DNA of 64,000 bases, taken from Moniliella sp. 'wahieum' (Eukaryota). Where the stretch lies: NCBI GenBank assembly GCA_003971905.1, contig RSEE01000018.1:682001-746000 (forward strand), given 5' to 3'. The notes under the pieces are model-generated. The model made no database searches, was not told where the DNA came from, and saw only the letters and a list, made by a program, of their open reading frames with translations. The number at the start of each line of letters is the position of its first letter. Position 1 is the stretch's first letter. Positions 1 to 52,229 of this stretch are shown here, in pieces. The position numbers and the translations under genes are program-made.

Positions 1-925
1 GCGGGTGTGACCTACTCCCTCTCCTCTCTAAAGCCACTGCATCCTCAACGATCATCGATCATCGATATCGATATCACAGAATAAACTTCATATCGAAATG
101 ATCTCGCATCCCCACCCACACAACTCCCAAGTTGTCTGCCCACTGCTGCAGAGTAAAGAGAGATCAAAGACGCCTATCATCTCGTCCTCCTATTCCCCAG
201 CTCCGATGAAGCGAGCGAGGGGACGACGAGGATGCATAGTAGGAGCATTGAGCATTGCATCATGTCATTGAATTGTTTTGGAGCGTATGTGTGGACGGTC
301 AAAGCGCTCCCCCCTCTCCCCTCTAAGCTTTCCTTTCAGCACCCCTTTTTTGCCTCGACTCGAAAGAAATGGCGGAGTACTCGCACCGCCGACCATGAAT
401 AGATCAAACTGCATGAAAACTTCGTGCGCCTCTTTGTCATCTCCTGCCTCTCACGAATTTGACAAACAGCAAAAGTCAGAGTGGACATATTGTCACTGGC
501 GCTACCTGACCTTGGTCTCTACGATCCCGGGCGCAGGTTTATTGAGTCGGTCTACACCGTGTTCTCTACCCCACAAAACAAAACTGCATCGTGCCAATCG
601 CATCATTCGTCATCAACATCATCAATCGTTAACACAACCGTCGTCAACATCATTGTGACGCTCAGACGGAGCCCGAGTTCTTGCTTGTTCTCTCACTTTA
701 AGGCTCCCCTCTCCTTTTTTGATTAGGATTTCTCGTGTTGCAAGGACGGTGCCAACCGACTACTCTCCTTCCCTCAGTTCTCTCCAGGGCCGCAGTAGGC
801 GTTCATCGTTGTACAGTTAGTTCATTGGAAACGTAGTCGACAAGAGAATGTGGAATGGAATGGAGAATGGAATGGAATGAGAAAGAGTAGGAGAAGAGCT
901 GACCAGGTGATCACCTGATTGACGA

Positions 926-2583
926 TCACGGAAGTGGTTCCGTCGAGGAAGACAAGCGGTTGAGAGACAAGTAGGCATCCGTTCCGTAGCCTTCCATCGA
1001 GATCAACTTGAGGTCCCCGCCAAAGTACCGAGCGTAAAGACGGGCAAGGGGCAAGCCGTACCCGTACCCTGCCATGGGGGCCTTTTCGATACCTTCGCCC
1101 GGGTCCAACTCATCGGGATGGGCGGTAGTGTAGGTGTACGTCCAGATAAGCGGCATCTCACTTCGTGGGATGCCGCCTGCCTCATCGCTAATCTTGATCG
1201 TCAGGTCCTCTCTCCCGGCAACAACGATGACCTTGATCGGGGGGAAACTGTCCTCGTTCTCCACACCGTACCGTTCAACCACAGCACGAAGGGAGTTCTT
1301 GAGCAGTTCAAACAAACATGCTGCAGCGAGTCCTGATGTTAGCTCCAAGTCATCACGCGGTAGTAGTCAGGCCGTTTATTAGTGGAGATCAGAGTATACG
1401 TACGTTGAGATGAGAAGGAATACATGAATGTGAGATCCTTGGGACAAATCAGTTGGACGGGGGGACCTTTGAATAGACCAAAATGTTCTTCGCACACAAA
1501 TCGCGCATTCTCAATCGCTTCATGTGCAATTGCACACCAACGTGGGTGTTGGTACAGATGATCCCCACAAATTTTCCGAATAGGGTGCCTCGGTTCCACT
1601 GGTAGCTGCATCAGCCAGCGCATTGCGTCCCACGAGCGACTTGTTGCCAGCGGTAATGGAGTCGTGCAGACTTTCGCTGTTGCGAGCAAGGGCAATGTGC
1701 TGCCCAAGAAGAATACGGATTCCAATGCGAGAAAGATAGAAGCGATCGAGGAAGCGATGAATGTCCGTCTGCAAAGCCAGATTTTGCGTCGCCCGCTTGT
1801 ACTCCAACACACCTTGTGCCATTGTGGTTACAACCGGGTCATGCCTTCGCTTGATCTTCTCAAGACAATTGGTGAATTGTTCGTTGTACTCGTGCACCTC
1901 TGCTGGCCATTCGATTTCCTCCATGGCGGTCAGCGCGTTGGGGTCCGACGAGATGGGACGGAGGGCGGGCCGGTTGGGATCGTCGCCATGCAGATGGGCG
2001 GATTCGTCGCCATACAAAAGGCGGGTTGGGTTCGGCTCATTTGCCAACAACGACATGGCGTGGGCTGCGTTGGCATTGAGTACGTTCTGGAGCTTTGCCG
2101 GCAGCTTGGGCGGAGGAGGAAACTGGATCAGTTCCTGTGGAAGTAGATGGCATCAAATGTGGAAGGGTAGTTAGAGAAGGGCAGGAAACGGCTAGAGAAG
2201 GAGAGACACACCTGAAACGACTGGGCGTACCACTTCTTGACTCGCAGGATCGAAGGCATCTCACTTGCGTTCCGAGGTAGGTTGTGCAGCTCACTCACTC
2301 GTGCGGCCAGGCGGATGGGGAGTTCAGAACGAAGGAACTGACTGCCTTGCAGTAGCGAGCCGGGGGTAAGGTTGCGACCATAGTTGACCATGTACCTCAG
2401 CGACACACCCGTCTGACGGAAGGAGGAGTAGTGTTGGATCTGCTTCCAGAGCTCAGGGCCCAGCTTGAAGCTAGCGGGGAGGGAGAGGGCGCCGGGTGTC
2501 AGCTCAACTGCAGTGCGCTGCACCACACCTAGTGTAGAACTGGGCCATCGCTAACCGGATGGGTATTGCACGTACTCGGCCAT
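926..2583 (-). CDS. PDK: Mitochondrial pyruvate dehydrogenase kinase (PDK/BCKDK family), multi-exon
   Basis: N-term motifs QTGVSLRYMVNYG, FLRSELPIRLAARV, IKRRHDPVVTTMAQGVLE, FLDRFYLSRIGIRILLGQH; GHKL ATPase motifs FELLKNSLRA, KISDEAGGIP, MAGYGYGLPLARLYARYFGGDL. Likely ATG at 2583 followed by a GTACGT...CTAG intron giving MADFKLGPELW; further GT-AG introns. Confidence 0.95.
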
Positions 2584-2994
2584 CGTGTGTGGTGGGGGCA
2601 GTGAGCGGTTCGCGTGGAGTATGAAGAGAAGAAGGAGAGAGGAGGAGGGAGCGGGGGGAGGGGGAGACGGCGAGGGTGAAGGTGAAGGTGGTGAGTATAG
2701 GCAGTCGCGCACTGCAAATGCTCTGCTTGCCCCCAAGCCAGCGCCTCCCATCATGGCGCCTTCCCCGCACTTTCCGGCACAACCCGGGCAGGTGCATGCC
2801 GGTGCCTGGATTAGATAAGAGGGAGTAGCCCGCAGCTGGAATAGCCATACCGAATCGAAAACTAGTGGGGGGCGGAGAGGGCGGGAGACGCCACGGAAAG
2901 TGGTTAAACTTCATGTATCCCCCGTTCTGATCGATGTCCGATGATCGATGATCGATATTTGATCAATGGCCGGGATGATCGGACAGCGTTTAAC

Positions 2995-3000
2995 AAAAAA
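2995..3000 (-). terminator. RNA polymerase III T-tract terminator of the tRNA-Glu gene
   Basis: T6 run on the minus strand 3 nt after the discriminator base. Confidence 0.75.
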
Positions 3001-3003
3001 TTG

Positions 3004-3095
3004 TTCCCCAACCGGGAGTCGAACCCGGGTCTTCACGGATCAGCTCAGCGGAGGAGCTTGAAAGCGTGACATCATAGCCGTTGGACCATTGAGGA
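3004..3095 (-). tRNA. tRNA-Glu (anticodon TTC) with 20-nt intron (3039-3058)
   Basis: Minus strand reads TCCTCAA-TGGTCCAACGGCTATGATG-TCACG-CTTTCA-[intron]-C-CGTGA-AGAC-CCGGG-TTCGACT-CCCGG-TTGGGGA-A. Acceptor, anticodon and T stems pair; intron lies at the canonical 37/38 position. Confidence 0.95.
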
Positions 3096-3590
3096 GCTGT
3101 GGTGGAGCCCGCCATAACAGAGGTGTGTGACAAAGAACAAAAGATCATTCCTTAGGCCTTACCGCCGTTACCGGTTACCCTTCAATCGATATTTAAACCT
3201 TACCGAGGACAGGTCTGTTAAACAATTGCAGCAACAGCAACGACAAAAAGCAAAGTATAGATGATGAATAGGTCGGTACAATAGCCAGCCAGAGTGAGCT
3301 GGCAAGGTGGCAGGGGGGCGGGGGAACAAGGAGAGGAAACCAGAAGAGTGGACGGTGGAAGAGGCATATAGGAGAATGGCTGCGAGGGGGAAGGGGAAGG
3401 TAACGCTTAACGGGGAATGTGTTCAACCAACTAACGGCATTAGCAAACGCATGACAAAGACTGGCCCACAAAAGCAGGTCCGCCTAGCTGACGAGACTGG
3501 TGGGAGCAAAGTGCAACGAGACAACGAGCAACGAGGGCAACACGACCAAAGTAGGGCGAGAATGGACTCTCTCCTGAGACCTGAATCGAA

Positions 3591-8026: not shown

Positions 8027-9254
8027 GCTGGGCGAGGAGCGTGGCGGCGGCGGTGGTGGCGGGGCGAAACGAGGGCGACGGGCTGGGCCAGACAGGCAAA
8101 GGCGGGAGCGCAAGGGTTGAAGATGCCTGCGGACCCTGCTAGGGCCGGTGTGGGACAAACTGTGGCGTCTGAATATTGAATCTGAGCGGCTGAGCGCTGA
8201 GCCTCAGCGCTCAGCGTGCTGCACGGGGAGGCTGAGTAACGAGTGCGCTGCTGCCCGGGCGCTCTGACAACAGTGGTGAGCGTTGCACGTACTGTGCTAG
8301 CGCCAGACGGGCAACGTACGTAACGCTAACGTAACCGCGTAACCCTGTTTAACCACCCTTGGCGTTGCACACAGCCCCCGCGCCCACCGCGCGGGGAGTG
8401 CCATGCGTCACACACCCCTGGCCGCTGTCTGGGTAGTGCGGCGTCCTGGCTGCATCCCCTGCTGCCGCCCAGTGCCCGCCCCGCCCTGCCACGGCCCAGC
8501 GCCACGGGCGTCTGCCACCCTCGCATGCACCGGGCTGCTGCTGCCGCGCCCCAGCAGCAGCCCACGCAAACAGAAGAGGCCTGGTGCAACGCAGTGCAGC
8601 ATGCAGACAGCCAAGCACCCACCCGCACGCACTGCGCCGCCCTCCCACCCGCCACCCTCCCCCCGCTCACCGGCCGCCTGCTCCCCGTCCAATCGAAGCC
8701 TACAGCATCCGGCCAGTCTGGCCAGTGCACCCTGCCCCCGCCCCATCCCGATCCGGGCCCTGTTGACACCCCTGCTGGCACAGCAGCAGTGTCCAGCCCC
8801 AGCAAGCCCCAGGCTGGGGCTGGTACCGGGCAAGAATAACCGGCAACCGGTGACCGAGGGGTGTATCTGTCCTGGCGCCAGAGTAACGTGCCCTGGAGGC
8901 ATCTTGGATTCAATATTCAATCTCCAGAGCCTTGAGCGCTTCAGCGCACTCAGCCGGAAGAACCTGCGTGTGGTCCTCTGGCCCGCGTACCCCGTCCCGA
9001 TCTTCGCTACTGAAATTACTGAAACCAGCCGCCACGATCGCCAATCTCAGACATCGATCAGGATTGCTTTGCTGCGTATTGCATTGACCGCATGCAAACC
9101 TTACGTAGCGCGTGGCGCCTTACGTTACGCGCTGCGGTTGGTAGTCGACGCTGCGCTTGACCTCTCGTTTCAACTCAAGCTCCACCGTCGTAGCATGCGA
9201 CAAGAACCCATTGGCAGAGTGGGAACTGGGAACCAGCAGTCGATAATCTGTCGT

Positions 9255-9622
9255 CTAACGTTTAAGTAACTAGTAACTAGTAGCACCTTACTTCCGTGTC
9301 ACACGCCACATATCACTATCACACACTACGTCTTCCGAGGTATTAGCTCGTCACGCGTCACGCGTCACTCGCGCCATGGCTCACGCGCTCTGGGAGGATC
9401 ACCGAATCACTGTCACTAGTGTCACTGGTCCCTAAGTCACTAGTCACTAGTCACTAGGTCACTAGTTCCACGAGTTGTGAGAACGTACCCAAGGCTTTGC
9501 GGCGTTAACGTCGTTAACGTTTAACGTTTAACATTTAACGTTTAGTACGTTTACCCTTCGGTGGTTACTTATTGCAAGACCGGGTACCGGATACCGGGGT
9601 TACCCGCAGTTACCTACCGGTT
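9255..9622. repeat. Cluster of 7-bp-period palindromic arrays (TAA-CTAG, TCA-CGCG, TCA-CTAG, TTA-ACGT)
   Basis: taactagtaactagta; tcacgcgtcacgcgtca (9351); gtcactagtcactagtcactag; ttaacgtttaacgtttaacatttaacgtttagtac (9514-9548). Confidence 0.9.
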
Positions 9623-12600
9623 GTCGCACCCATGGCCACGTCACTTGTCGTTTCAAATTTCACGATTCAAGGTGACCGGTGAATATGAATTCCAACGGCT
9701 CAAATTTCAAAGGCCTGTAAAGCGCCAACGCTTCCAAATCGAAAGGCCCACGTGCTATAGAGTGCGGGGGATCCCTACGGGCTGATTCAGCTGTGGAGGA
9801 ACCGTCAGCTTCAAGCTTCAGAAAGGCGCGAACAAGGAAGGTAAAGTGGTGGGCCCCAAAAGGTTTTAAGCACTTCTTTAAGGAAGGAGACAGGAGACAG
9901 AGGAGACAGAAGACAGAGAGGGGAGATAATTGCGAATAGGAGGAGTACCAGCAGAACCATTCCTACCTAACCACAACAATCATTAAGCGCGAGAGCGCCG
10001 AAATACGGTCCATACACGTGCTTAGGATCACGAGGCGATCGCCACTTCCCACCGCCCACGCCTCCTAAACCGTCAGCAAGGCCAGCAGCGTCAGACCCTG
10101 TCGCATGACCGGTTGTTCAAGGTGTACTATCGATCTGGGTCGAAGAATGACGGGGATACTCCTGTTGCTGATGACGTATTCCGTCGCCCCGCCCTCTCGC
10201 CGGCTCTAGCCCTCCCGTGGCTGTGCTTCAGACTTTTGTGGGAGCTGTCGGCCCGTGCTCGAGCTCATACCCAGTTAGTCCGATCCACCGTTGGGCGCGC
10301 GCTTGGAGTCCGACGGGATTAACACCGCATTCGCGAGACTTGGTGCCCCCTGTAGACCCACGTTGGACCGCGGCGGCCTCCTCTCTCCCCAGCTCTTAAG
10401 GTTCGTGATGGCTTCCTGTGGGGGCTTGTGAGCGGATCTATGTCCCTCAATGCCCCTCTCCGGACGGCCATCCTTTTGCAGGCCCGCGATTCAGCGCCGT
10501 AAGGACGTAAAGTATCAGGCGCATAACAAGACGGCTAGATGTACGGTCGCACTACTTACTGCCCCCTATTTCAAGGTCTGTCAACTCACTTTTGACGATG
10601 GAGTACATTACGGTGCGAATTCCTGGTCGGGTGTGGGAAACAGGTTGAGCAAGATGATGCACTTTTCATCCGTTTGCTCACGCGAACGACACGGCGCTGC
10701 GACTAGCTCACCAGTCTGTCCACAACGTCTTCCGCTACCATATGGCCTGCCGCGCGACTTGTGATGAGAGACCGTGGTCTCACCTTCACGAGCCACTTTT
10801 GGCGAACCCTCCGGTTCAGAATTGGGCATCAACCCGAGGATCGTAAGTACGGCTTATCATACACCACCCCTAGTTGAACAGACAGACAGAGAGAGTGACC
10901 AGGATATTTTCGTTGCTACCGGGATGAGCAGCAGTATATAACTGGGTTGATCTTCTCCCCACGGCCGAGTCTGCTTACAACTCATCCCCCAACTCCAGTA
11001 GCACAGGCGCATTGCTCCCGTTGCTTTGCGTACGGTTTCCCTCCTCGATAGCGGGGGAGAGGGTCAAACTCTTGATGCGTTTCGAAATAGTAGTTGTATC
11101 CAGCTGAGACGCGGGGGACCCTTCAGGTTAGAGAAGGGGAAAGACAAGGGTTAGTGAACACATTCGGGAGACCCTTTCTGAGTGGGGAACGAGAGGAAAT
11201 CAAACTGGCCACAGTTGCGCTCCATCCCCATAGTAGACGAAGCATGAGGAAGAACATCGAATGGACCCACAGACTCCGAGGGGGGCCTATCGTCCCCAAA
11301 AGGATATGCGGGTAGTCGAGGTCTCTTTGTCTACCCGCCATGGTAGGACCGCTCCACCATTGACTAGGTTGGGGCTGGAACCAAGCTCTGTTAAGATTGT
11401 GGACAAAGTGTCGGGCCTTCGGATCAGATTTCCGGAAGCCCGTAACATGATGAGACTTTTTGGTCTCACTTTTAAAACCACTGCATCGGGGAGATGGCAT
11501 CGCTATTAGATTGACTGACCACCTGGAAACCGCGGCATACTCCGTATGTGTAGATGGGCCAGAGCCCCATTGCTCATGTTTGGAGCAGAACTTTAGTCCA
11601 GGTGAGGAAAGCAAGTAGGCTTCCTATTATATAGCCAAAACTCTTCGCCGGCCCCCGTCTTTTTCCGTCAACGGTGAGATACAGACATCAGGCTCCTCTT
11701 CATAAGGGGTGTCCTCACGCCTAAAGAAACGGATTCCCTTTATATCAAGTGGGCGAGGCGCGGTAGTGTATATACTTCCCTGTCGTCTGAAAACAGGCAT
11801 GGGGTGCATGGACCCTGACATTATCATTAGTAGACCCTTGTGCCACCACGCGCACAACGGGTGTGGATATATATGAAAGCATCCCCCCTTTATCCGTGGC
11901 GCTAAATCTCGGCCCCTCGTTCCACCAAACTGTCCGCGGCCATCGCCTTGGCTGTGTCTGGGGCTACACCTTCAGTGCAGACCTTGGGGGCAAAAGCGAA
12001 GTAGCGACCTTGGGTCCTCCTGCCAAATAGGACACCAAGCACCATTACCGGGTGCCCCCTTGGTCGATGGTCGATGCTCAGGCATGTTGAACGTTTCATG
12101 TGGCCCGTAGGGACTAGGTAGGGACTAGGGAATGGGCACTGGTTAAAATCTAAAAGTTGATGATTCAATGTTTAACGTTGGGTGAGGCTCTAGGCGCCAC
12201 ACACCGCCCCATGCCCGGCCGACGGAGGCCGCAGCTTAGAGGCACCCCGGCACTGTGGATCGGCAGCGCGGGTGGCTCGATGACGTCGGGCCTGCGCTCG
12301 GGGCCGGCACACAGGCGGGGCGCGATGCATGCTGCTAGATGATCGATGATCCATCGATGCGCCTCGGCCGTCAGCGCAGAACACTGGTGCTGTGCTGCGG
12401 ATGATGGCGCTTGGATCTCAGCGAGCTCCGATCCAGACTCAGATCCCTGGTCGATGATCGATGATCGATGATCGACGTCGAGGCGCAGAGGGCGCCACAG
12501 ACCACAAGGCGGCACCGGTTACTGGGTTGCCTGCCGCACGGGGGCAGTGGGGCCGCCATCCGCACTGCGTCGGTCCCGAGTCGCCGGCCTGGTCCAGCCG

Positions 12601-13992: not shown

Positions 13993-14060
13993 TCCAATCC
14001 AATCCCAGCCACCCAAATCAATCCAATCCAATCCAATCCAATTCATTCCATTCCAATCCA
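13993..14060 (+). repeat. (ATCCA/ATTCC)n pentanucleotide microsatellite
   Basis: tccaatccaatcc...aatccaatccaatccaatccaattcattccattccaatcca. Confidence 0.8.
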
Positions 14061-16433
14061 CATCAGGTTGTTGCAGGTTTTAACTTGCCTTGGCCTGTGC
14101 ATGCTCTCTTAGTCATCGACCACTTTTCGCTTGCGCCTCAGCCTCGCATATCACATGACAAGTCACTTCCACTATGAGCGCCAGATGGCTAATCCACTCC
14201 TTCTCGGCCGACGGGTGAATATGGATAGACAATCAGGTGGCCTCTACCGTCTCGATCGGGGCGAGTAGATCGCTACTCACGATGCGTCGATGTCACGTCC
14301 AGTGGTGCTTGCCAGTGTAATACAGGAATGGAGAGAGTGGCCCTGTGGTGCATGTACAGAAATAAATAGAGATATGGATGGACGGAACAGGCCCTCGTTT
14401 CTCATCTTAACGCTGGCACTGAAGCTTTTCTGAAAGCCTCGTTGTCTACTATAGGCAAGGGAGTGCGAATGTGTTCTTGACCCTTGACCCATCCTCCTTG
14501 GGTGAAGGCTTTAGCACTGTACATATACCAGGGCTGTAAACATCTCCTCTTCCTTGCCCCACACACTCGGGATACAGATGATAGTAGTACTTATAGCTCT
14601 TGCAGACTCTTCCTATTGCTGCGATATACGTCAAGTCTCCCTTCCGGCCATAGTTCATTGAGAAACGCATCTAATCCAATGGTTTTTCTTCCTCCATCTC
14701 ACAAGATTCCTATACTCGCTTTGGGAATGTAAAAGGAAGGACGTCGTGACGCGTCGCCGCGTGAAGAAACCATGAAAGGGAAATATTAATCCACGATCAT
14801 CGATCAGGGGAGGAATTGAACACCCACACTTGTGTAGTAACCGGTAAGCGCGCATAACCGGCATAATGCACAAAACCTTCCTAACCAAGCATAACGCGTA
14901 TAACGAAAGCTGGTATACACCGGCTGGCTATCCGCGGAGACCACAGCTGGCGCTATGTGGGTAGATGACTATCGATGACTCGACAACGAAGAAGCATGGC
15001 TCATGCATCATTCTAACACAGCGTTTTGTCGGTATCGATGATGCACCAAGTTGGCTTTGAATAGGACGGGGGGATACGTTGAAAAGGCATAAGTCTTCTT
15101 GGGAGAGAGTCAGTGAGTCATAATAGTTGGGGTTGCAGCGTCTAGTCGAAGTGATGCTAGTGATGCTGGTAAAGACGCCGTCGACGGCGTCTTGCTGCGT
15201 TGGCCAAAGTCTATTTGTTTGCGGAAACGCCGTCACCGGTCACCTTCACCTGTCTCTACCACCCGACACTCCACATGGGGAGGCCGAGACAAAAAGTTGA
15301 CTGGCCGCGGGACCAGTGTCAATGTATACATACAGAAGCGTGTCATGTGTCACACGTAACAAGCTTTTACCGACCTTGCGTTACGACAAGGGAGAGGAGG
15401 GAGTCGAATTCATCAAAGGACAGAGAGTACGCGTAGTACGCCTCGCAGCTAGACGCGCTGCGGAGAGTAGGGAGTCCGATGTGTACGTGTTATCAGATCT
15501 TCCAATCTGGATCTGAGCCTAAGATTCCAGATCCCAGATCCCATCTCAAACCAAATTCATCACATGGTCCAGATCTGAGATGGGATGGCTGATCGATCGC
15601 TGATTTCGCTACGCATTCTGCTCCGAAAGCCCAGCCGCGGTGCCTGGCGCAGCGCTGCAACAGCGGCAAAAGCGGGCTGGGGCACCACTGGGGCAGGTGG
15701 CCAGTGGCCGCAGGAGCGTGGGCCGCGCCCGAGCACGAACGTTCCGAGCATGCCCGATGTCTGCTGGCCACCTGTCGCGGTGGGGAAGGTGGGGATTGCT
15801 CATGCACCCATGCATCTTTTGGCGTTTGGCCGCATTCGACGGTTGACGTTCATGGCTGACCCCCTGCAGCTGGCGCATCGCCAGTGGCTGCCCCCCCCCT
15901 TGCATCCCTCGGGGGCTGTCGCCTGCGCTGGTGCAGGCTAGTGCATGCTAGTGCGCCGGTGGGCTACTGCCCACGCCCGTCTGCCCCCCAGCGCTGTGGT
16001 GTGCGCTGGTGTGCCTCGATTGAATATTGAACGTTGCGCTGCAAGCGCCAAGCGCTGGCGCTGCGCCAGTGCGGCGAGTGGCACGTCCCATCACACACAC
16101 GGGCGCATGCACTGTGCTGCGTGCATGCTTGCGAAGCCCTAAATGTTACGCACTAACCCTAAGGCCGAAGCCAAGGCCGGAGGAGGGCCGGAGGGCCAGC
16201 AGGCAGCAGGCAGCAGGAGCGGGCCTCTGAAAACCCCCCGCGCCCCATTCCCTACCTGGTTGATTAATTCATTCCGCATCAATCATTGATCCTAATCATT
16301 CGCAGCATAGTCACATTCACTCGTCCCTGCGACCAGCCACTGCCTGCTCACACGCCCGCATCCTCGCGTCAGGCCTCAGGCGGGGCCCAGTCGAGGCTGC
16401 CAGGCACCAACGCTCCTCTCGCCCACCACCGCC

Positions 16434-19429
16434 ATGCCCGCCTCTCCGCCGCCCGCCAAGCGGCGCAGGCGCCAGCTCAGCTGCGACGCCTGCCGCGCAA
16501 GCAAGCTCAAGTGCGTTCCCCCCGCCCTCGCCACACGTCGGCCGACGCTGACTCTCTGCTGGCCAGATGCGACCGCGCGACGCCCATCTGCTCCACCTGC
16601 CGCGCCCATGCCCGCACCCCCAGCCAGTGCATGCGCAACGGCGTGCCTGTCCAGTATGCCCCAACGTCCCCCTCCCCCGCTCCGCCTCTGCCGCCGCGCC
16701 TGCCGCCCTCCCCGTGCTTCCCCGCTCCACCCCAGCCCCGACATGCCGCGAGCCCCTGCTTCCCCCGCCACACCCCGTGAGCCGGCCTCGGACGGGTCTT
16801 GTCGCCTGAGTCTTCCCCTTGCTGACCCCCCCACCACCGCTTCCAACTCCTCCTCCAGCTGCGACCCAGCCTCTGCCCCGGCCATCTCGGACCCTGCCAA
16901 CCCGCCCGAGCCTTTGGTGGGCAGCAAGCAGCCCGTCGCCACGGGCCATCCAGGCATCCTGGACCAATCCTGCTTGGACCTCGCCACGCGCACACGTGCC
17001 TTCCCGCCCGCCTGGTACAGATGGAAGCCATGTTGGATCTGTATTGGACCAAAATTGCAGTCGTCATGCCTTCGTACGACCCGGGTCTGATGCTCTTACG
17101 GACGCGCGACCTATACCGCCTTCCGCTGGGAGAAGAGGCGATGCAAGTAAGCCATTTGACCGGCATGACCCTTCCCATGCTTGCCTGGCTGTGTGCTGCC
17201 TGCTCTGCCGTCCTGCGCTTGGCTCAACCCACCCGCCTCCTCATCTGGGGCATTGTGGATGACGCAGCCGCTGTTGCGCACAAGGCGTGCGCGCTCAACA
17301 AAATGGCGCGCGAGTGTCTGTCCTGTCGTATGTGCAGGGGGAGAAGGCACTGTGCCCCATTCGTGGCTGTCCCGCCGCCCTCTTGCGGATCCAGGCAGCA
17401 GTGGCTATCACCTCGTCCGCCTCTTGTGGTGCGCCGCCACCAGGATGCAGCAATGTGTTGGACGTCGCGATCCGGTGTGCCCGTCAGGCGGGTCTGGACC
17501 GGATGGGGAAAGTGAGTGAGCTACCTCGCAACTTGCATGAGTACGAGCAAGCGGCGTGCTGGCTCGCGCTGGTTTGCGCCGACTGGCGTGGTGCACCCTA
17601 CCTGGGGTGCTATACAATCTATCCCGGCACCTTTTCTACCGAGTGGGATCTTTCGTTGGAAGAGCTGGTTGAGGCACATGCCCATCTGCTCTCCATCTCT
17701 GAGGACCGCAACAAAACAGACAAGCAGTCGTCGGACCCGCCCAGCCAAGTCTCAACTCCCACTTCCGAGTCGGAACCAAGTGACGCACGGAATGGTGCGA
17801 ACCAAGCAGCGGACCAAGCAGCAGACAAAGAGGAACATGGTGAGGCGCCCCGCGAGATGACACCCCCCATGGGCTGTGTTGACCACCATGCGGCATGTGG
17901 GTATGGGCATGGCAACTGCGGATCGCGGATGAGGCGCGCAAGCTGTGTGATTTGGGGGTACACGATGCTGCGCAGCGGGGTGAATGTGGGGTACGACAAG
18001 GTGCTGGAGCGGGACCGAACGTTGCAAGAGTTGTTGAAGCTGCGACCGGCCGAGCTAACGGTGGAGAGCAAAAAGGAAAGTTTGGACCGCGAGGTGCAAG
18101 CCAAGATCAAGCGGTTTCCTTGGCTGTTGACGCATGCAGTGGCGGTATCGACACCGTTGCGTACCATCCTCCTCTCGCTGCACATGCCCTATGTGTTGGG
18201 TGGGTACCAAGATGCCATGTCTAATCCTTCTTCGGCTCGGGCCTTGTCCATTTCCTCAGCGCTCGAGCAGAGCGTGAGGATTGTTCGAGCGGCCCAGCGC
18301 GCTTCGATGAAGGGCATCATTCTTCATCGGCAATGGCCCTTGCGGCACAGCCTATTCAACGCAGGTCTTGTTCTCATTTTTGATCTTTTGTTGCGCAACT
18401 CGTCTCTTTACCGCCTGTGTACCCTGGCGGCGCATTTGGACAGCACTCCCTGGACGAAGAGGTGGCATTAGCAATTGAGTGCCTTGACGATTCCTCCTGG
18501 CGTCGAGGACGGAGCGACGTGGCAGATGTACCTTGGGTCAACACGTCGGACTTTCCCTCGCATTGGCTTGCGCCCACTCCGCCCAATCCGACAGGACCCA
18601 GTGGCGCCCAGGTATCCCAACCTCCCAACCTAGGCGTTCAACACTTTACCGGCGAACGACTGGAACGGTACTTGTGCTTGCGCTTCGACGGAATGGCCAA
18701 CAGGGCGACGGCGCCCTGGCTGTCGACTCGTACATGCAAGCGTATGCGACCGACATGATTGGCCATCGTCGTTCCTCGGGCCGCGCAGCCGTCAAAAAAT
18801 GTCAACTGCCAAGCCAATCCCGATCCCGACAGTGGTACTGGTCTATTTCGCAGTCGCAGTCGCAGTCGCAGTCGCAGGCGCAGGCGCAGTCGTATTCGCA
18901 TCGCTCGCTCCCGTTGCCAGTGCCGTTGCCGTTGCCTCCCCACGCAGAGGAAGCTGCGACTACCCCGTTGGAACTGTCGGCACAGTATCATAATAATGTG
19001 TCCCCCGCACCGCCTGTCGCACTCGAGTGGGACGTCGCCGCGGCGCTGCCTGGTTCCCCAGCACCGTTTCCGCTGGGTCTGAACGCTGCGCAAGCCGGGC
19101 TGCCCAACCACACTGGTCTGCCAGGTCTTGCTACCGGCATGCTCGATCTGGACGGCGCACTTAGTTCGGAGCTGAGGCTAAGCCCGAACCAACACACGGC
19201 GTATACCCCTTCTATCACCACTTGTATCCCCCGTCCGCTGCGGCGCTCGGATCGTTCGCTCAATCGGACACGCCTTCGCTCGAGGCGCTCCTTCAATTGG
19301 CCGATTCTTCCTCTGGACTTCCCGTCGACGCTCTCTTGGCCGATCCGTTCTTGCTCACCATGGCCAACGCACAGTTCCCCCACCCATTTTGATTTTGATT
19401 CTTTTTGTGGGTGCCCGGGTCCCCCCTAG
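16434..19429 (+). CDS. Zn(II)2Cys6 fungal transcription factor, frameshifted
   Basis: MPASPPPAKRRRRQLSCDACRASKLK|CDRATPICSTCRAHARTPSQC across a GT-AG intron at 16511-16566; middle-homology-like segments (AIRCARQAGLD, ACWLALVCADW, ILLSLHMPYV, LFNAGLVL). 3' end approximate. Confidence 0.85.
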
Positions 19430-33080: not shown

Positions 33081-33107
33081 TCAAGCTTCAAGCTTCAAGC
33101 TTCAAGC
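33081..33107. repeat. (TCAAGCT)x~4 palindromic heptamer array
   Basis: tcaagcttcaagcttcaagcttcaagc. Confidence 0.9.
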
Positions 33108-34794: not shown

Positions 34795-35148
34795 TTCTCC
34801 CTGATGAGGCCTGTCGTTGCATGGACATCACTTGCTCTCCCGGACATTCCATGTGCATCCCCCCTTTGCCTTTGGATTGGCTCCATTCGCTCTTCACACC
34901 TGGGTCTATCCGGTGCCCCCCCCCCCCCCCCGCCCCCCCCTTCCGCTATGGAGCTATCATCTTGTCTATTCGTCCAAACCGCTTTGTTCAGTCCTTTACG
35001 AGCAGGATACTGTTGCAGATGATTATCGCGATAGGGCCATGAACTGCATACAATGTGCTCAACGGACGAAAGGGAAATGCCAAAGGGAAGACAGAAGACT
35101 GCCACTGAGAAGCGATCACATGGGCCAAACGAGGCTCAGGCCTGAGGG

Positions 35149-37295
35149 TTAATCATCTTCCTCCCCTCTCCTTCATCTGAATCCTCGATAGAACCAACAC
35201 GCCATTCACCCTCAACATCCCATCGACTGCCCCAGCCGAGGCCGACAGGTACTGGATGAAGTGCATCACGCCCTCATCGCGAAGGACAATGTTGAGTGAG
35301 TTGAACTGAGGCGTGAGGCTGAGCAGCACACCATCAAACTCCTCGTCCTCGTCTTCGTCCTCGTCATCGTCCTCATCTTCCTCGTCATCTTCCGCATTCG
35401 TGTTTTCAGCCTGGGCTTCATCGGCCACACCCGCACCCGCCTTCTTGCTTCCACTTCCGTACACGGCTGGGTCATCCTCCTCCTCAGCAGGGGCCATAAA
35501 GCATTCCCATCCACCCACAACGCCTGTCTCCCACTTGGTCCGCAATTCCTTGATCTGTTTGGCGGAAAGCGAGCCAGATGGAGTAGCCGCCTTGGCCTTT
35601 TTGGCCGCCAATCCCTGTTTCTTCTTCGAAGGCCCTCCACCAACAAGCGAGTCAGCGACATTGGGAGTCAAGCCCAAGTTGACTTGCAGCACAGCCTCCT
35701 CTTCGTCCTTCTTGGCCAACGTGTAGTCCAAACCGGGGCGGAAACGACGAGCCCAAAGCGGATAACGGGCCGCCAAAGGAATCAGTTGGGTCAAATTGGC
35801 CAACAAGGCGCGGAAAGCCGGGGAGGGGAACAAGACCCCACGCACCAATGCGATCACCTCCTCGGCTGTCTGGGGCAACTGGGCAGGCAAAGGTGGGTTT
35901 TCTCCCGCCAGCGTTTCGGGAACTTGTGAGGCGCCCTGGTCGGCCTTGGTGACCAGCGACAAGAAACGGTGGTGGTGCGGAGGGCCCTCGATCGTCCACT
36001 CGTCCGAAGTGCCCTCAGCCTTGCCAGTGCCAGTCAGATGAGGCTGAATAGTGCATGCCTCGCGCAGCTCTTGCCCCGTCTTGGTTGCACCAGCGGGCTT
36101 GTTGTCAAACCAACGGAACCATCGCGGCGGTCGAGCTCGACGAGACCTTTGGACAGAATCTTGGCCAACTCGGGACGCAAAAATTCAGCCAGGAGCAAAT
36201 TGCTCTCGTCCCAAACTGATCAAACAGCTTGCTTTGCACCTTGGGGTTAAGATAGGCCTGATTGATAAAGTAGGTGAGGAACTTGCGGTCCGCATACGAC
36301 AATTGCGCCCCGGGGACAACAGTGCTTGTCATCTCCACCTCCTCTGCACCAGCATCCTCCTGGGCCTTGGCGGGAGCAGCGTCGGGATAAGGCACAAAGG
36401 GACGGGTACGTTTTTGGCTCACCAGGCTCTCGGCCGACGAGTACTCTTTGCGCGCTTGTTCTTCTTGCGCTTCGACCTCCGAGAACCCCTCCTCATCCGG
36501 CAGGGGGCGATGGAACCAACCAGAGATACTGAGCCTCGACACTTGCGGGTGCACCACTTCCTCCACTGAATGAAAGGAGTAGCCCGGAATAACCGGGAAA
36601 AAGGCAAATTGGTTCCAGAGCGGCGGGTGGACCGCGGTCGGCACAGCTTCGGGCTCATGTGCCACACTGACCGGGTACAGCTCCAGAGCACCGCCGTACT
36701 CTGGCTTCCATTCCCGGTCTGGCAAGTAGAGGATGAAGGAGACACGCCGGGTCGAGATCACGTCGCTAATACGAGCACAGCCTAGTCAGTACTCAGTACA
36801 GCCGTACAGCCCGCCCGAGAGGGGTCCAAGAGAAGTGGACATACTCGTGATTCAAAAGGTGGCATCCATCACGGTAGTCGTTGATGCTCATGTCCTTCTT
36901 TTTTTCAGACAGAGGCCCGCACCCAGTGACACGCTGGATGAAGGAGCGGAACTCCTTGGAGAAGAGCGCATCGCGCACCTGGAACACACTCTTCAAGCGT
37001 TCTTGTTCCGCGACAGGGAGGCCATCCAAGTTGGCCAGGTCACCCGTTTGGTTCACCTTGTAAATGTCGGTCTCCTTCTCAGTGAACGAGAGTTCCTTGA
37101 CAATCTCGTCCCGCGCCGCTCGCAGTAGAGCGTCGTTAGGAGCGGGCGGACAACACTGTGCTTGTAAGGACCACTGGTAGCGCAGCCGGCTACGTAGCCT
37201 TGGGAAAGCTCGCTGTCCGCCTTGAACAGATCGGGCGAGGAGAAGCAGGCAACCACTTCGGGGCGAGGCACGAAGGATGTGGAGTTGCCAGACAT
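35149..37295 (-). CDS. TPA1: uS12 prolyl 3,4-dihydroxylase Tpa1/Ofd1 (OGFOD1)
   Basis: [77 protein letters not shown]-term [38 protein letters not shown]. Confidence 0.93.
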
Positions 37296-37732
37296 GGCGC
37301 GAGCGTGGTGGCGGAGGCCAGTAAGGCTTGGGGCCAATTTTTTTCTGTTCTCCGTTTCGCCAGATGCGGTGGCCGGGGGGTGATCGTCATTGTGCATGAC
37401 GCATGACATGCATGACACGCCTGGGGCTTGCAGCTTGCACCGGGCGTGGACCTGCGAGTGCGGGGGACATGCCAAATGAAAGTTGCAAATGCCCGTGCTC
37501 GCTTGTCGTTTCAAATTGCCAATTGCAACAATGCACCCCTGCATCGGCGCCCCGCCTGGACACGTCCCCTGTGCGGTGCCCCAACCGAAATAAGCCAACG
37601 GGGATGGTCGAAGCACTGACTATGCATCATGCATCATGCATCCTGCCCCAGCTGCATCAGATCATCAGACCCGGTGATTGAGTCACCGGTCGTGTCACCC
37701 ACCGGTCAGGCGACCGGCCGCGGGGACAGTGG

Positions 37733-37770
37733 CTAGTGACTAGTGACTAGTGACTAGTGACGCGTGACGC
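37733..37770. repeat. (TGA-CTAG)x4 array switching in register to TGA-CGCG
   Basis: ctagtgactagtgactagtgactagtgacgcgtgacgc. Confidence 0.9.
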
Positions 37771-42934: not shown

Positions 42935-44200
42935 AGGCCTGAACGTCCTGAACGTTCAGTTGAACTTGAACTTCCGCCCGGAGTCGTGTTCGTGTGGGAT
43001 ATATGGCTTAAGAAGACCAACAACCAAAGGGTGGGTGGCCGGTTCGTATGAACAAGTACGAAGTCAAGCTTCAAGCTTCAAGCTTCATGGACGCCTCTTC
43101 CCCCTCCCCGCCCATGGCACAGGATGCGCTCAGGCCCGAAGCCTGATGGGTTTGATGCATGACGCAGCCATGTCATCAGATGTCACATGTCAGACGTCAA
43201 TATCGTCACATATCACATGTCACATGTCACATGTCACACGTCACGCATGCATGGGGAGCATGGGGAGCATGATGCATGACTAGTATTAGCTAGTAGCAGG
43301 CAGTTGCAGGCAGTGGCCCACACAGCTGTTCGGCCTTCGGTGCTGCCCCTTTCTGGCCATCATGCATCAGCCGATGGCCCAGCGACACCGACATGGCTTC
43401 GGCGGGTCAAACGTTAATGAATCTCCGTTTTCCCGCCTCCCACACTCATCGCAGATCTCATCAAACATGCTTGATGATCGATGATCGATGATTCGATCAT
43501 GGATCCCTGGCCGTTATGGGTGCAGCCGGGTAGTGCAGCAACAGATGGGCTGGACTACCCACTTGTCAAGCTACGTGCTTCAAGCTAGCTTCGAGTTGAA
43601 CGTGTACTGAACGTAATCTCTACACCATATTCAACCTCTACTCCATATTAAAATGGGAAACGCCCTGTGCACTTTTTATATCAGCCTCACGTAAGCCACC
43701 GGGGGCGCAGCCAGCCACGCCAGCCAGCGCGTATCGGTGATATTATGTTGGGTTCCAGGGTGGAACAGTGGACAGGGGGAACGGTGGCTATGGTGGCGAC
43801 ACAGCACCAGCCCCAGCTGACCGGGCCGTAGGCCCGGTGGTCCTCGTATATCTCAACAGTGACTAGTGACTAGTGACTGTGCAAGTGAACGTTGAACGTA
43901 TGCAAGACGAACAAAATATCGCCCATGCACGAGGGATTATGCAGATGCATGATGATCGATGACGTATTGTGGGCCCGAGTCGATAAATGCCACGTTCATC
44001 GAGGCCACCAGTCACAGTATAATAGGGTGTGACGTGTGACAGGGATCCGGGACTGTTGTAGAGATCATCGATCACTCGATCTGAGTGCAACCGCAGGCAA
44101 CAGCCTCCGAACAGATGAAGATCTCCCAACAGTAGTGAGCTATAGTGACATATAGTGACAGTCACTAGTCATGACCGATGAGATCGATGATCGATTGCCG
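42935..44200. repeat. Dense field of palindromic heptamer arrays (ACGT, AGCT, CATG, TGCA, TCGA, CTAG cores)
   Basis: tcaagcttcaagcttcaagcttca (43064); tcacatatcacatgtcacatgtcacatgtcacacgtca (43206); tgatcgatgatcgatga (43475); tgactagtgactagtga (43860); tgaacgttgaacgt (43886). Confidence 0.9.
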
Positions 44201-44468
44201 ATTTCGGTTAATACGCGTTACATGTTACGACCAGAATGACTGACCGGATGACCCCACATGCGTGTACTCCAAACTCCTATAATAAGATGCTCTTACTGCG
44301 ACAGTATCTGGGCCAAAGGACGGTGACCATTGTGGATCGGTAACGCCGGTCGGTAATAGCACAAGTTCAACGTCCACAAGCAGAGAGTGTGCACCTGGAT
44401 ACCACTCCTAGTCGTTACCATCATCTTCTTCAGTTTTCGCCTTGACCATCCAAACCCGGGACCATCAC

Positions 44469-45908: not shown

Positions 45909-47097
45909 ACCGCGACCGTACGCGGTATTGAGTTAATATGCCTTCTTCGGCCTGGATTATGCTCTTATGAAGGTACTCGCGGGCACAAGTGTTGCGTATT
46001 GTTGACCTCGTTATATCAAAATGCCTATACGTACCAGTCTCGATCTGGTACCTGTCGCTTGTGCGTGGATCCCACATGGCCTCCCATCCCCCTCGTATTG
46101 TCTTGCCACAGCGTGTGAAGAACGATATGGGTGGGGAATCTGCGGGCGTGAGGTCGATGATCCGACATCAAACATGCGAGAGCTGTTGTCCACAAATGTT
46201 GGTTCGAACTCACATTACCCCCCCCCCCCTCAAATCCCTACTTATCTACACAATTCCTCTCCATTGCTCGAGAGGCGTCACTGGGTCTTTACTATATTCT
46301 CTTTCGTACCATGTTGTGGAGCTTATATAGATGCGATGGGCTTAGACTCCGGTTGCACGGATGTAGACGTCCTTTGGCCTCGCTACATGGACTATGGATT
46401 AGGGTTATATCCTCTTCGAGACGCTGTGTGTCAGATGATGGTAATCCTGTGGTATGTATAGTAGTGTTCAATAGAAGGGAGGTACTACATTCCTCCCACA
46501 CACAAGTCAGCGTGAGGTGGGACGCCTTTAACCCACCAAACCCCTGTATTTTGGTTCGAATAGGATTGCATCCTTGGATACGTGCTCTCATATGGAGGCT
46601 AACATACATTCCATACCGGTACGTTCGTGATGCCAGAGCGTTCTGCCAATCACGTCTCTTCATATGTCTCCTGGCCTCAGGCCTCAGGTTGCATTAGATG
46701 CATAACGGGTGTGGCGGAGGCTTTCCAGTGAAGGCTCTAGGGGTGCTTTAAGGCTATTGTTCACCCCCTTTTTCTTTGCTCTCTCGCTCCATTTCCCTTT
46801 TCTGTTTCCTGTCTCCTTCCCTTCAGACGAAGACACGGAGCGCACCACTTTACTTTCATTCTTTGTTCATAGGCTGGTGCTCTCAAGTCGGGCTCGATAG
46901 CAGACTTGGAGTTACTATAGTAGACCGCATGACCAGAAGAAAGAATATACGCGCTACGCCATGATATAGACGTGCCGACAATCCACAATCCACACGCCAG
47001 GTTCGCGATTGTTGGCACCCAGGCACAAAGCAGGTGACAAGGTGGGTGGCAGACTGTGACGGTGACGAATGGCAGAGACAAAGGCAATCCGTCGGAC

Positions 47098-47535
47098 GTC
47101 AGATCTCAGAATACGAGATCTGAGATCTGAGAATGGAAGGAACAGTGCCGAGGGCATGTCTAGTGCGTTCGGCCGAACAATAGATGTAGCTGAAACGTTC
47201 AAAGCATGCCCCGTCGTGCATCGAGCATCGTGCATCGAGCATCGTGCATCGATCGCCAGCCCCTGAATCCTCTATCGATCACTTCGATCACTGAGTACTG
47301 ACAGGGAAACATTTGAAGTTGGAGCTGGAGTTCCAACTTGAAATTGAAGGCTTGAAGCTTGAAGCTTGAAGGAGAGGAGTGCCAGAGAGTGGCTGCGGGT
47401 TTCCTCACCGGTCACCATGACCGGTGAAGCCGGTGGAACTTGAAGCTTGAAGCCGGTGACGAGATGCGGCCCCGGCGACATGTCACTGTGACAGGTGACA
47501 GTCACATGTGACAAGCGACAGATGACATGGACATG
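47098..47535. repeat. Cluster of palindromic heptamer arrays (GATC, TCGA, GTAC, AGCT, CCGG, CATG cores)
   Basis: gagatctgagatctga; tgagtactga; tgaagcttgaagcttga; tcaccggtca; tgaccggtga; tcacatgtga. Confidence 0.85.
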
Positions 47536-48182
47536 GCGAGCGGCCAGAGAGTGGAGCGGAATGGGATCTGGCCAGGGGCAGCAGCAGGCCGCAGGGGGGC
47601 GGAGCGAATTCGTGGACCTGCACCATGCAGTGCGTGCTGCAGCCGGGCGGCGCTTGGCGCGGCGGCAGAACGGCGGCCAAGCACGTGGCCGCCTGCGGAC
47701 CACTGCACTCCCACATGGTCCCGACCATGTGGCTCGGATTGCACTGCCGCTGTGCGCCGCCGCTCCGCTTGATAAGTGGGAGCGATTACCGCTCACCCGT
47801 GCCTCACCCGTCACCCCCTTGCCTGCCTGTGCGGGGGAGCAGCCCAGTACGCCAGCGGCGGCACTTGCTCAGGAACGGTGTGCGAATGGGAGAGTGGACG
47901 GCCGGCATGCTGGCGCCGTGCCACACTCTGTGCGAGGTTCGGTATATTCAGCCGAGATCGGGGCGCAGCAGCTGCGCAGTTGCCGTTTCTGCCCACGCGT
48001 GTGCTAGGCGCAGGCAGGCGCTGGCCGGCACTGGGTACTGGCGGCACACCCCTTGGGCTGCACGGGGCAACCATGCGTACGCACATCCACATGCTCCAGC
48101 AGCATGTGCTCTGCTGTGCTGTGCGCTCCCGTGCCTGGCCCCCGCCTGCCAGGGGGCGCATGCACACATGGCGCATGGCGGG

Positions 48183-48213
48183 TGATGCATGATGCATGAT
48201 GCATGATGCATGA
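48183..48213. repeat. (TGATGCA)x4 array
   Basis: tgatgcatgatgcatgatgcatgatgcatga. Confidence 0.9.
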
Positions 48214-48454
48214 TAACCAGCCGAGTGAGAGTACTCCCACTCAGTGTGTCCGGTCAGCAGTGGCTCACGCTCACTCGTCAAACCTTACGGCTTGGCTTGC
48301 TTGGCTCGTCTCCACCTCCTCTCCTGTTCCCTCCTCCCTTCCTCCTCCTCCTCTTCCCCTTTCCCCTTCTCCTCCCTCGACATCCCCGGCCGACTGGTAC
48401 GGCTCGGCGGCATCCTCTCCTCCGCTCCCGTCCTCTGCCGTTTCCGCCGCCGCC

Positions 48455-51400: not shown

Positions 51401-51620
51401 ACCACTCATGGACCGTGCTCGATCGCGTCCCACACCTCCTAGGCGACAACCTCGCGGCCCTCTTATGGATGCTGGCTCCACTAGTGTCCCTTTCGGTCGT
51501 GCCCCTCATTCGCTGGGGTTTGCCCCAACGGATCATACCTCGTTGTCGTCCGCTCCCCTTGGCAGCTCGGCCCGGTCGCTGACCGAGTCGTCGATTGACA
51601 GCGCTAATTCGCTGGCATGA
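48455..51620 (+). CDS. Ser/Thr protein kinase, Ran1/Pat1-Ksp1/Sks1-like, frameshifted
   Basis: VVRKLGEGSYACVYLV, FALKCLCK, HDNIVTL, FEYCP-GQDLFYWLE, VAHRDLKPESFIV, VKLTDFGLST, CGSKPYMSY|EC, ADVWSLGIVLLNMLFHRNPF; long Ser/Arg-rich tail. Confidence 0.88.
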
Positions 51621-52229
51621 CTGCGAGCGACGTGACGCCCATCGATGGGCAGGGAAAAAGTCGAGTCGACTGGGAAAGCTTCACCAAGTTCTTCGCAAGT
51701 AAACTTCTACTCCTCCCTGGCCACCATGACATACCGTCCTTGCTGCCCCCCCCCCCCCTCCCCCCCCGTTCAATCCCTGCTATTTTTTTCCCACCTCGTC
51801 TATGGACCTTGTAGCCCTCCACTCGGATTCGTCCTGCGTACCCACCCTCATTCGTCGGTTTCCAACTTGCTCCCCCTAATGTGCTAGCCGAGTCCGCGCT
51901 CTTGCTCGAGGGGCAGCTTTTTCCTATTCATTCTTGTACTGTTCTTGGTTGATGTCAACCTTGAGATTCAACTCAACGTACTCATCGTTCAACGTTCACT
52001 CCTAGTGTATCGCGGCAAGCTGGGCCTGGCTGTAGATTCTGTTATTGCGGAAATCCCTGCTTGCAGGGACAAACTCCTATAGTTTCTAGACCGAGGATGC
52101 ACGCTCAGCTGCTCGCCTACTCTTTGCCCTAAGCTTCCTAAGTATCCATATCATTGAGAAGGCTTCTGGTCCAGGCAGGAGAAAGGCTTTGCCCCCAGGC
52201 TGGCTCACATGCGGCGTTTTTGCGACAGC

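Follow-up and report, generated by a model that had tools for sequence, protein, structure and literature searches.

Heptanucleotide arrays built on A-N4-T palindromes in the intergenic DNA of a Moniliella sp. 'wahieum' contig

This study describes a family of short tandem arrays in the non-coding DNA of Moniliella sp. 'wahieum', as found in a 64-kb stretch of contig RSEE01000018.1 (assembly GCA_003971905.1, positions 682,001 to 746,000), hereafter called the window, in which positions are counted from the first base. The arrays have a period of 7 bp, and each unit combines a palindromic hexamer of the form A-N4-T with one spacer base, mostly C or G (S), so that a T-S-A triplet stands at the junction between hexamers. 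A preliminary description had proposed such a grammar, namely T-N-A plus any 4-bp palindrome, repeated every 7 bp in non-coding DNA. Our counts confirm it and give it more weight than was claimed, with 32 perfect period-7 arrays where shuffled sequence holds 0.73 on average (3 at most). We class the arrays with the hairpin-prone heptanucleotide tandem repeats. As to their origin, we lean tentatively, and with confidence that is close to evenly divided, toward a lineage-specific class of self-complementary microsatellites whose origin and turnover are both local, through slippage or template switching.

Arrays were counted as perfect tandem runs of at least 2p+1 bases at period p, with 30 dinucleotide shuffles as the background. 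The neighbouring periods gave 43 arrays (period 6; 3.5 expected) and 6 arrays (period 8; 0.33 expected), and in intergenic DNA the 7-base repeats are in excess over these periods. Among the 32 period-7 arrays, 20 have a unit that consists of a palindromic hexamer and one further base (11% expected), and all 20 of these hexamers have the form A-N4-T; their spacer is C or G in 17, A in two, and T in one. Since a random heptamer fits this template about 2.7% of the time, the class is enriched roughly a thousandfold, and the enrichment of the remaining 12 arrays is about equal to that of the period-8 arrays. With ordinary slippage microsatellites the arrays share perfect head-to-tail copies that arise locally and end at any phase, but in such microsatellites the unit would be expected to be unconstrained except by composition, which these 20 of 32 are not. 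At periods other than 7, quasi-palindromic units show no enrichment (5 of 40 arrays at period 5, 1 of 43 at period 6, and none of the six at either period 8 or period 9). The family arrays, as we call those with the A-N4-T unit, are also longer than the other period-7 arrays (mean 21.5 versus 16.4 bp, p=0.0009), and three units or more are reached by 10 of the 20, compared with 1 of the 12 others.

The same design emerges when hexamers are counted instead of arrays. The window holds 293 A-N4-T palindromic hexamers, compared with 169 in shuffles, and the distances between them peak at 7 bp (31 versus 0.2), 14 bp (13 versus 0.6), and 21 bp (11 versus 0.4); hexamers bounded by C..G, G..C, or T..A give no such peaks in the same analysis. 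The preliminary description had proposed setting palindromic against non-palindromic cores, and the outcome is clear: TNA-N4-TNA with a palindromic core occurs 92 times (6.8 in shuffles, a 13.5-fold enrichment), whereas with a non-palindromic core it occurs 106 times (116 in shuffles). Pairs of TNA triplets around cores of 2, 3, 5, or 6 bases are not enriched either (0.66-1.33x).

To place the words relative to genes, we used a map of 15 gene spans drawn from Pfam matches and a codon log-odds score, the latter being weak and G+C at third codon positions (GC3) being uninformative for coding potential. The map assigns 41,732 bp to genes and 22,268 bp to intergenic DNA; five of its spans (G3, G4, G6, G7, and G12) are based on the codon score alone, and G12 is a doubtful gene whose translation looks non-coding. 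When each array is collapsed to a single count, intergenic DNA contains 155 A-N4-T palindromes against 65.3 expected from shuffles of the same DNA (z=12), whereas the gene spans contain 99 against an expected 100, in agreement with the claimed restriction to non-coding DNA. The three other outer pairs lie at or under expectation in both compartments. Full A-N4-T palindromes between genes are at 2.94x, and there is no halo of half-palindromes around them, as half-palindromic intergenic hexamers are at 0.85-0.95x, those with just one of the two inner pairs complementary being at 0.90-0.95x. The five hexamers with the highest intergenic/genic ratio (ATCGAT, AAGCTT, ACTAGT, AACGTT, and ATGCAT) all belong to this class, which calls for caution in fungal promoter motif discovery.

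The choice of core is broad. Six cores exceed every one of 100 shuffles, among them TCGA (6x), CTAG (5x), ACGT (4.2x), AGCT (3.1x), and CGCG (2.6x), and 12 of the 16 possible cores are at 1.7x or more. The first core base is spread evenly over the loci (T 41, A 38, C 43, and G 33). Lone hexamers still favour T at position -2, C or G at -1 and +1, and A at +2, but T-S-A-centred odd palindromes lying clear of any hexamer show no enrichment (1.14x), from which we take the hexamer to be the primary word. Different words also keep the common register: pairs of unlike cores are found 23 times at distances of 7, 14, 21, and 28 bp, compared with about 1.9 per other distance. TATA, TTAA, and AATT, which the preliminary description had not seen, are indeed in no array, although they do occur as isolated words (AATT at 5 intergenic loci, TATA and TTAA at 2 each).

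Within arrays the units run head to tail. In 85 of the 92 occurrences the T-N-A triplets on the two sides of a core agree in their middle base; in 5 the middle bases are complementary, and in 2 they combine otherwise, so that the arrays are direct repeats and not dyads. This bears directly on the idea, put forward in the preliminary description, that they are sites for a two-fold symmetric dimeric chromatin or promoter factor reading TNA-N4-TNA. Such a protein would account for the intergenic placement, the likeness of palindromic hexamers to classical dimer sites, and a fixed 7-bp spacing in which 3 units make about two helical turns. It predicts TGA-N4-TCA, however, and only 5 of the 63 even palindromes are perfect 10-bp palindromes of this form. 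Nor would any single sequence-reading protein accept the 10 or more of the 16 cores that are enriched, and the T-S-A-centred odd palindromes lacking a hexamer show no excess, as said above. We therefore disfavour the dyad form of the proposal and regard a symmetric dimer as very improbable indeed. Several binding sites known from elsewhere were compared with the arrays, namely those of bZIP/AP-1, the E-box, the heat shock element (HSE), the MluI cell cycle box (MCB), the homeodomain TGAC site, and the sites of Zn2Cys6 proteins and topoisomerase I; each fits at most some of the cores.

Each array arose in place and is not a copy of a mobile or dispersed element. Comparison of the window with itself by BLAST revealed no dispersed repeat carrying an array and no flanks common to different copies; of its eight non-diagonal matches, the four of at least 35 bp are made up of one array-to-array match and a 44-bp repeat at 53 kb. 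The starts and ends of perfect runs take in all phases of the unit, and every class of length modulo 7 is represented. Of 19 arrays, 15 begin with a complete T-S-A on the left, 12 finish with one on the right, and 11 have one on each side, where random phase would give about 71% per side (these end phases were read from the sequence by eye and not by script). Flips of the spacer between C and G have created long palindromes at 8189-8215 and 47501-47512. At Rfam's gathering score no array is matched, the single match in the window being a transfer RNA (tRNA) gene at 3004-3095.

The excision footprints of cut-and-paste DNA transposons offer a different account, in which T-N-A would be a 3-bp target-site duplication, the palindrome would stem from two bases of each inverted terminal repeat, and units would accumulate as elements time and again entered the regenerated T-N-A and were excised from it. 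Tc1/mariner elements do leave palindromic footprints flanked by duplicated target bases (TA, palindromic remnant, TA), and the resemblance to a direct repeat of target bases around a short palindrome is plain. The scheme covers the constant triplet and the agreement of its middle base on the two sides of a core (85 of 92 cases), and it also covers the period of 7 bp, the free choice of palindromic core, and the mixed-core chains that stay in register. Unlike what is seen with Tc1/mariner footprints, however, the arrays come with no elements in the window, random-phase ends, and many cores: no transposase domain was found in the 234 reading frames scanned, no dispersed repeat is present in the 64 kb, the count of 11 of 19 arrays with a full T-N-A at both ends equals random phase, and 10 or more cores would demand as many element families. 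We know of no transposon superfamily with a T-S-A target duplication. On the grounds of array boundaries, missing elements, and number of cores, we rejected this model and consider it very unlikely. To an assembly or sequencing artefact we give next to no credence, as the arrays are 15-69 bp long, are set in unique sequence, consist of many different units, and respect gene boundaries; no artefact known to us writes palindromic heptamers only between genes.

What we tentatively prefer, then, is that hairpin-prone microsatellites arise in place. Slippage during replication, or intramolecular template switching, would create and resize the arrays, and self-pairing would filter the units, with neighbouring units on one strand forming a hairpin in which T-S-A is the loop or a mismatch. 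Such hairpins could stabilise slipped intermediates or hide them from repair, allowing palindromic-hexamer units to outgrow other 7-mers. Contraction of an array would leave perfect single words behind, which may account for the 2.4-2.9-fold excess of lone A-N4-T palindromes; mixed cores in a common register may be sub-arrays that diverged inside one older array, and spacer flips may reflect hairpin-templated correction. Rapid gain and loss of whole units would yield an excess of perfect single words without decayed ones, and the absence of half-palindromes fits whole-unit turnover that is faster than point mutation. Coding DNA would be kept free of arrays because the period is not a multiple of 3 and one strand carries TGA; a TGA every 7 bases would put a stop in all three frames after 3 units. 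There is precedent for the individual steps in yeast: short inverted repeats of the yeast lineage are reported to have their arms homogenised by template switching (PMC8604942), and a link has been drawn between quasi-palindrome mutations and RNA:DNA hybrids where yeast DNA is transcribed (Kim et al. 2013, cited in PMC4412130).

Folding agrees with part of this scheme. Modelled with DNA parameters, all family arrays give a hairpin with stems of 5-6 bp, the T-S-A forming a triloop or a mismatch. For A..T arrays of four units the average is -6.7 kcal/mol with a C spacer and -7.9 kcal/mol with a G spacer, a difference of 1.2 kcal/mol in favour of the G-spacer strand; random heptamer arrays average -2.1 kcal/mol, and a single-stranded array accordingly folds clearly better than random repeats do. 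The preliminary description had itself named a fold-back or template-switch footprint as the alternative to a binding protein, and much of what we found sits well with it: the in-place origin, the ends at any phase, the lack of a half-palindrome halo, the C/G flips, and the greater length of family arrays. It leaves aside why only A..T hexamers with a C or G spacer take part.

This gap is one of several points that weigh against a purely mutational origin. Among palindromic units the A..T-bounded class is the least stable as a hairpin, with C..G and G..C units reaching -8.9 to -12.9 kcal/mol; T..A-bounded units are equally stable (-6.0 to -9.0 kcal/mol) and yet form no array at all. Abundance does not track hairpin stability, then, as the most stable classes (C..G and G..C) are absent. 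The strict T-S-A junction (never A-S-T, G-S-C, or C-S-G) is unexplained and points to a sequence-specific step, be it an enzyme or selection; because hairpin stability fails to predict the junction rule, one of these must read T-S-A. Periods 5 and 9 lack any enrichment of quasi-palindromes and periods 6 and 8 any enrichment of perfect palindromes, and arguing that period 7 is a 'sweet spot' is a rationalisation rather than a test. In the decayed array at 43176-43244, TCA is kept in all of the approximately 10 units, whereas the cores have taken about 7 changes (counted by eye), which looks like a constraint on the triplet. A neutral process also does not predict the excess of TGA over TCA on the sense strand upstream of genes that is described below, fragile as that polarity is. 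Finally, all counts rest on one 64-kb window. Our confidence is no higher because stability does not predict the rule, T..A units are absent, and periods 5 and 9 show nothing. If the origin is mutational nonetheless, the arrays expose a very sequence-specific step of replication or repair that accepts only A..T palindromic hexamers followed by C or G, and they would let the handling of hairpins in a basidiomycete be read cleanly from natural sequence.

The same triplet is the basis of a second explanation, which we consider possible though on the unlikely side, namely that the arrays are a polar cis-element of promoters or 5' untranslated regions (UTRs). T-G-A would recur head to tail every 7 bases on the sense strand, with selection keeping the arrays and slippage setting their copy number. 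They would be read by an oligomeric nucleic-acid-binding protein on the DNA or the transcript, or serve as a three-frame stop cassette, and the self-complementary 4-base spacers would add a hairpin. The restriction of the words to intergenic DNA fits this idea (155 versus 65 between genes, 99 versus 100 within gene spans), as does the finding that the three convergent (3'-3') intergenic regions of the gene map hold no multi-unit array. So do the invariance of the T-S-A junction, its retention in the decaying array at 43176-43244, and the circumstance that a stop codon is possible at T-N-A junctions only. For a eukaryote the idea has a bacterial precedent in TAACTGA repeats that face start codons, as described in the cited part of PMC4679880.

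By eye the orientation of the arrays looked strongly polar. In the divergent regions G2/G3, G7/G8, and G9/G10, the arrays on the left carry TGA on the minus strand and those on the right on the plus strand, and the same switch is present upstream of G13, provided that the doubtful G12 is real. The region between the Ofd1 and RING-variant (RINGv) genes has (ATGCAT+C) on its left and (ACTAGT+G) on its right, in each case with the TGA strand facing the nearer gene, and in each of the four arrays that precede the kinase gene TGA is on the sense strand of that gene. Counted over the partly inferred 15-gene map, orientation toward the downstream start codon is 18 sense to 7 antisense for multi-unit clusters (p=0.04) and 45:25 for all clusters (p=0.02). 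On the presumed sense strand upstream of genes TGA outnumbers TCA (369 versus 263), with G and C balanced, and TAA/TTA and ATG/CAT are balanced between the strands as well. With Pfam-supported genes alone, however, the polarity is gone (41:41 overall and 16:10 for multi-unit clusters), which makes it a lead and not a result; moreover, the direction of G12 was first guessed from the arrays. As TAA and TAG have no sense-strand excess, a general need for stop codons is not supported. A protein that reads the triplet, for its part, leaves the palindromic form of the spacers unaccounted for, and spacers of non-palindromic sequence show no enrichment.

Sites of this general kind are known on RNA. 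The HutP protein of Bacillus recognises UAG triplets with 4 bases between them (UAG-N4-UAG), and TRAP binds GAG/UAG repeats; both belong to bacterial attenuation systems, and their spacers are not palindromic. They share with the arrays a constant triplet, head-to-tail order, a 7-base period, and spacers that are not read.

An excess of heptamer repeats has been described in bacteria. The TAACTGA direct repeats of marine Beggiatoaceae occur, in the account given in the cited part of PMC4679880, in sets of 2-6 copies that are mostly intergenic and face a nearby start codon, and they give stops in all three frames. The relevant passages of PMC4692102 list GGGAATC in Xanthomonas and GGGGA(C/T)T in Nostoc, and present heptamers as an over-represented class of long repeats in bacteria, for which one tentative explanation invokes the length of DNA that the polymerase holds. 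Like the arrays in the window, these repeats have a 7-base period, come in short sets of 2-6 or more copies, are intergenic, and vary between relatives. They differ in being prokaryotic, in using one or a few fixed words per genome, and, as far as the cited passages go, in having no palindromic rule, whereas the window has a eukaryotic host and at least 10 different self-complementary words under one template. Hairpin microsatellites and quasi-palindrome mutagenesis in yeast offer the other comparison. Self-pairing strands, growth in place, and arm homogenisation are common to both (cited part of PMC8604942), as is a link to transcription in the case of quasi-palindrome template switching (Kim et al. 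2013, as cited in PMC4412130), but the known yeast cases lack the fixed period of 7 and the A..T plus C/G junction rule, and none of them has been described as a genome-wide intergenic grammar. We found no published description of arrays such as those in the window in fungi or other eukaryotes, supplementary material aside.

A bolder version of the promoter idea, which we think doubtful, would make the arrays a eukaryotic counterpart of the bacterial heptamer repeats, that is, a polar sense-strand code of T-G-A at 7-base intervals with self-complementary spacers in fungal promoters or 5' UTRs. Its head-to-tail reader might be an oligomeric protein binding single strands or RNA, or the array might itself act as a combined three-frame stop and hairpin module. 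If this were true, a copy number tuned by slippage would be a fast-evolving dial of expression. Should the arrays prove functional, they would represent a new kind of promoter or leader element with a link to the long-unexplained bacterial heptamer repeats. On either reading, mutational or functional, they are ready-made hypervariable markers.

The individual arrays are listed here by core, beginning with TCGA. At 45-75, about 4 units of (ATCGAT+C) run into (ATCGAT)2 (found with Tandem Repeats Finder, TRF; perfect run 49-66). An (ATCGAT+G) array of 4.1 units at 2928-2956 (TRF and perfect-run scan) lies between the 5' side of the PDK gene and the tRNA gene at 3004-3095 (-), which is about 50 bp away. 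That gene has an Rfam score of 45.4 bits over 92 bases and is probably intron-bearing; ARAGORN reports none. Further (ATCGAT+G) arrays are found at 12451-12475 (3.6 units) and 43473-43497 (3.4 units), and two such units precede a mixed chain, ACGCGT-T-ACATGT, at 44183-44231. Close to this family stands a perfect 14-bp repeat, TCGTGCATCGAGCA, present in 2.8 copies at 47214-47252; it consists of two heptamers that differ by one base, each of them one change away from the ATCGAT family.

CTAG is the core of (ACTAGT+A) at 9265-9282 (2.6 units), of (ACTAGT+C) at 9407-9466 (about 8 imperfect units), and of two (ACTAGT+G) arrays. One of the latter, at 43858-43878, has 3.0 units; the other, at 37728-37768, has 4.9 units and precedes the likely RINGv start codon by about 150 bp. 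Its last unit is ACGCGT, which follows the ACTAGT units in register (37739-37765). (ACGCGT+C) itself forms an array of 2.9 units at 9349-9368, and (AACGTT+T) one of 4.4 units at 9503-9544. The AGCT core is represented by (AAGCTT+C) at 33079-33107 (4.1 units) and 43064-43087 (3.4 units) and by (AAGCTT+G) at 47344-47371 (3.9 units). TGCA is found in (ATGCAT+C) at 37622-37646 (3.6 units, in the divergent Ofd1/RINGv intergenic region) and at 48167-48214, where (TGACGCA)2 passes into 4.6 units of (ATGCAT+G) that abut the first open frame of the kinase gene. The decayed array at 43176-43244 consists of 9.6 imperfect units of (ACATGT+C). Shorter arrays are those of (AGGCCT+C) at 46673-46688 (2.3 units), (AGATCT+G) at 47115-47132 (2.6 units), and (AGCGCT+A) at 20326-20340 (2.1 units).

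Thirteen cores had been cited in the preliminary description, and for ten of them (TCGA, AGCT, CTAG, TGCA, CATG, ACGT, CGCG, GATC, GGCC, and GCGC) an array of more than 2 units does exist where it was cited. The GCGC array is present but imperfect, with spacer flips: at 8172-8216 (TRF) a TGA-ATAT-TGA unit is followed by (AGCGCT+G) turning to (AGCGCT+C), the whole being a 27-bp odd palindrome. The cited ATAT array, at 8172, reduces to that one unit plus a degenerate one, but the core does take part in the mixed-core chains at 16023 and 33785. GTAC amounts to exactly 2 units of (AGTACT+C) at 36783-36799, where two reading-frame segments of the Ofd1 gene meet. CCGG, cited near 47405, is there as two single 10-mers of opposite polarity, TCA-CCGG-TCA and TGA-CCGG-TGA, ahead of 2.1 units of (AAGCTT+G) (47403-47453); it, too, is part of the mixed-core chain at 33785.

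Such chains keep the common register while changing the word. They read TGA-ATAT-TGA-ACGT-TG at 16023-16041, ACATGT-G-ATGCAT at 31989-32007, AATATT-G-ACCGGT at 33785-33803, and ATGCAT-G-ACTAGT at 43272-43290. A tract of mixed GTCAC and GTGAC heptamers at 47475-47533 includes, through a spacer flip, the 12-bp perfect palindrome GTCACATGTGAC. GTGACAG arrays are found at 33890-33908 and 47488-47527; this 7-mer falls outside the palindromic rule but has TGAC/GTCAC in common with several family units.

Beyond the window, at least 124 stretches, differing in G+C, matched (ACTAGT+S)3 when metagenomes were scanned. Among the matches listed, we analysed the 56 loci of at least 3 kb (585 kb in all), leaving out shorter loci and three overlaps (L005, L013, and L056); none of the matches listed is related to the window by BLASTN. 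In these 56 loci period 7 is again the commonest (377 arrays, compared with 157 at period 6 and 26 at period 8), but outside the query type an A-N4-T unit is found in only 5 of 284 period-7 arrays. Many of the period-7 units look like what we take to be bacterial heptamer repeats, and the loci therefore have no bearing on the fungus. L004 (12.3 kb), L041 (8.7 kb), and L018 (8.5 kb), with 43-50% G+C, are extremely rich in period-7 arrays, with 28, 40, and 10, respectively. Their units often consist of one base added to a palindromic hexamer, either N-CTAG-N' or another (TCTAGA, CCTAGG, GCTAGC, CATATG, and TAATTA), and the three loci represent a second, different dialect of palindromic heptamers. 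Five other loci (L003, L012, L044, L057, and L071; 52-54% G+C) have non-palindromic heptamer arrays in common, namely AATCCCT, ACCAGTC, AATGAGG, AACCCTG, and ACTGGGG, which resemble bacterial or cyanobacterial heptamer repeats.

As for the host, the window has a G+C content of 58%, and its reading frames encode domains typical of eukaryotes: a mitochondrial PDK/BCKDK kinase, bHLH, KH, a mitochondrial pyruvate carrier, an Ofd1-type prolyl hydroxylase, RINGv, a glycolipid transfer protein, C2H2, and a protein kinase. RasGEF, RasGEF_N, and RhoGAP domains come together in one very long minus-strand gene. For the Ofd1 frame, the nearest of the named proteins is that of Tilletiaria anomala (50% identity; 60% for the best match overall), followed in similarity by those of Malassezia, Ceraceosorus, Testicularia, and Tilletia. 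Comparison of this one protein suggests a basidiomycete of or near the Ustilaginomycotina that is probably without a close sequenced relative.

The RasGEF/RhoGAP span covers 52567-64000 (-) and continues past the edge of the window. Its adjacent open frames with RasGEF_N, RasGEF, and RhoGAP look like a signalling gene of several domains that is very long and interrupted by few, short introns; the nearest proteins have 48-60% identity. The 3' part of this span contains a 44-bp tandem repeat (53085-53283; 4.5 copies, 88% match) that is not related to the heptamers. Long C-rich tracts, including runs of C25 and C22, are present in intergenic or 5' regions at 23867-23996, 34916-34940, and 51746-51767. 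Ordinary microsatellites also occur, with about 14 copies of TCCAA at 13993-14065 and about 10 copies of TCGCAG at 18848-18904.

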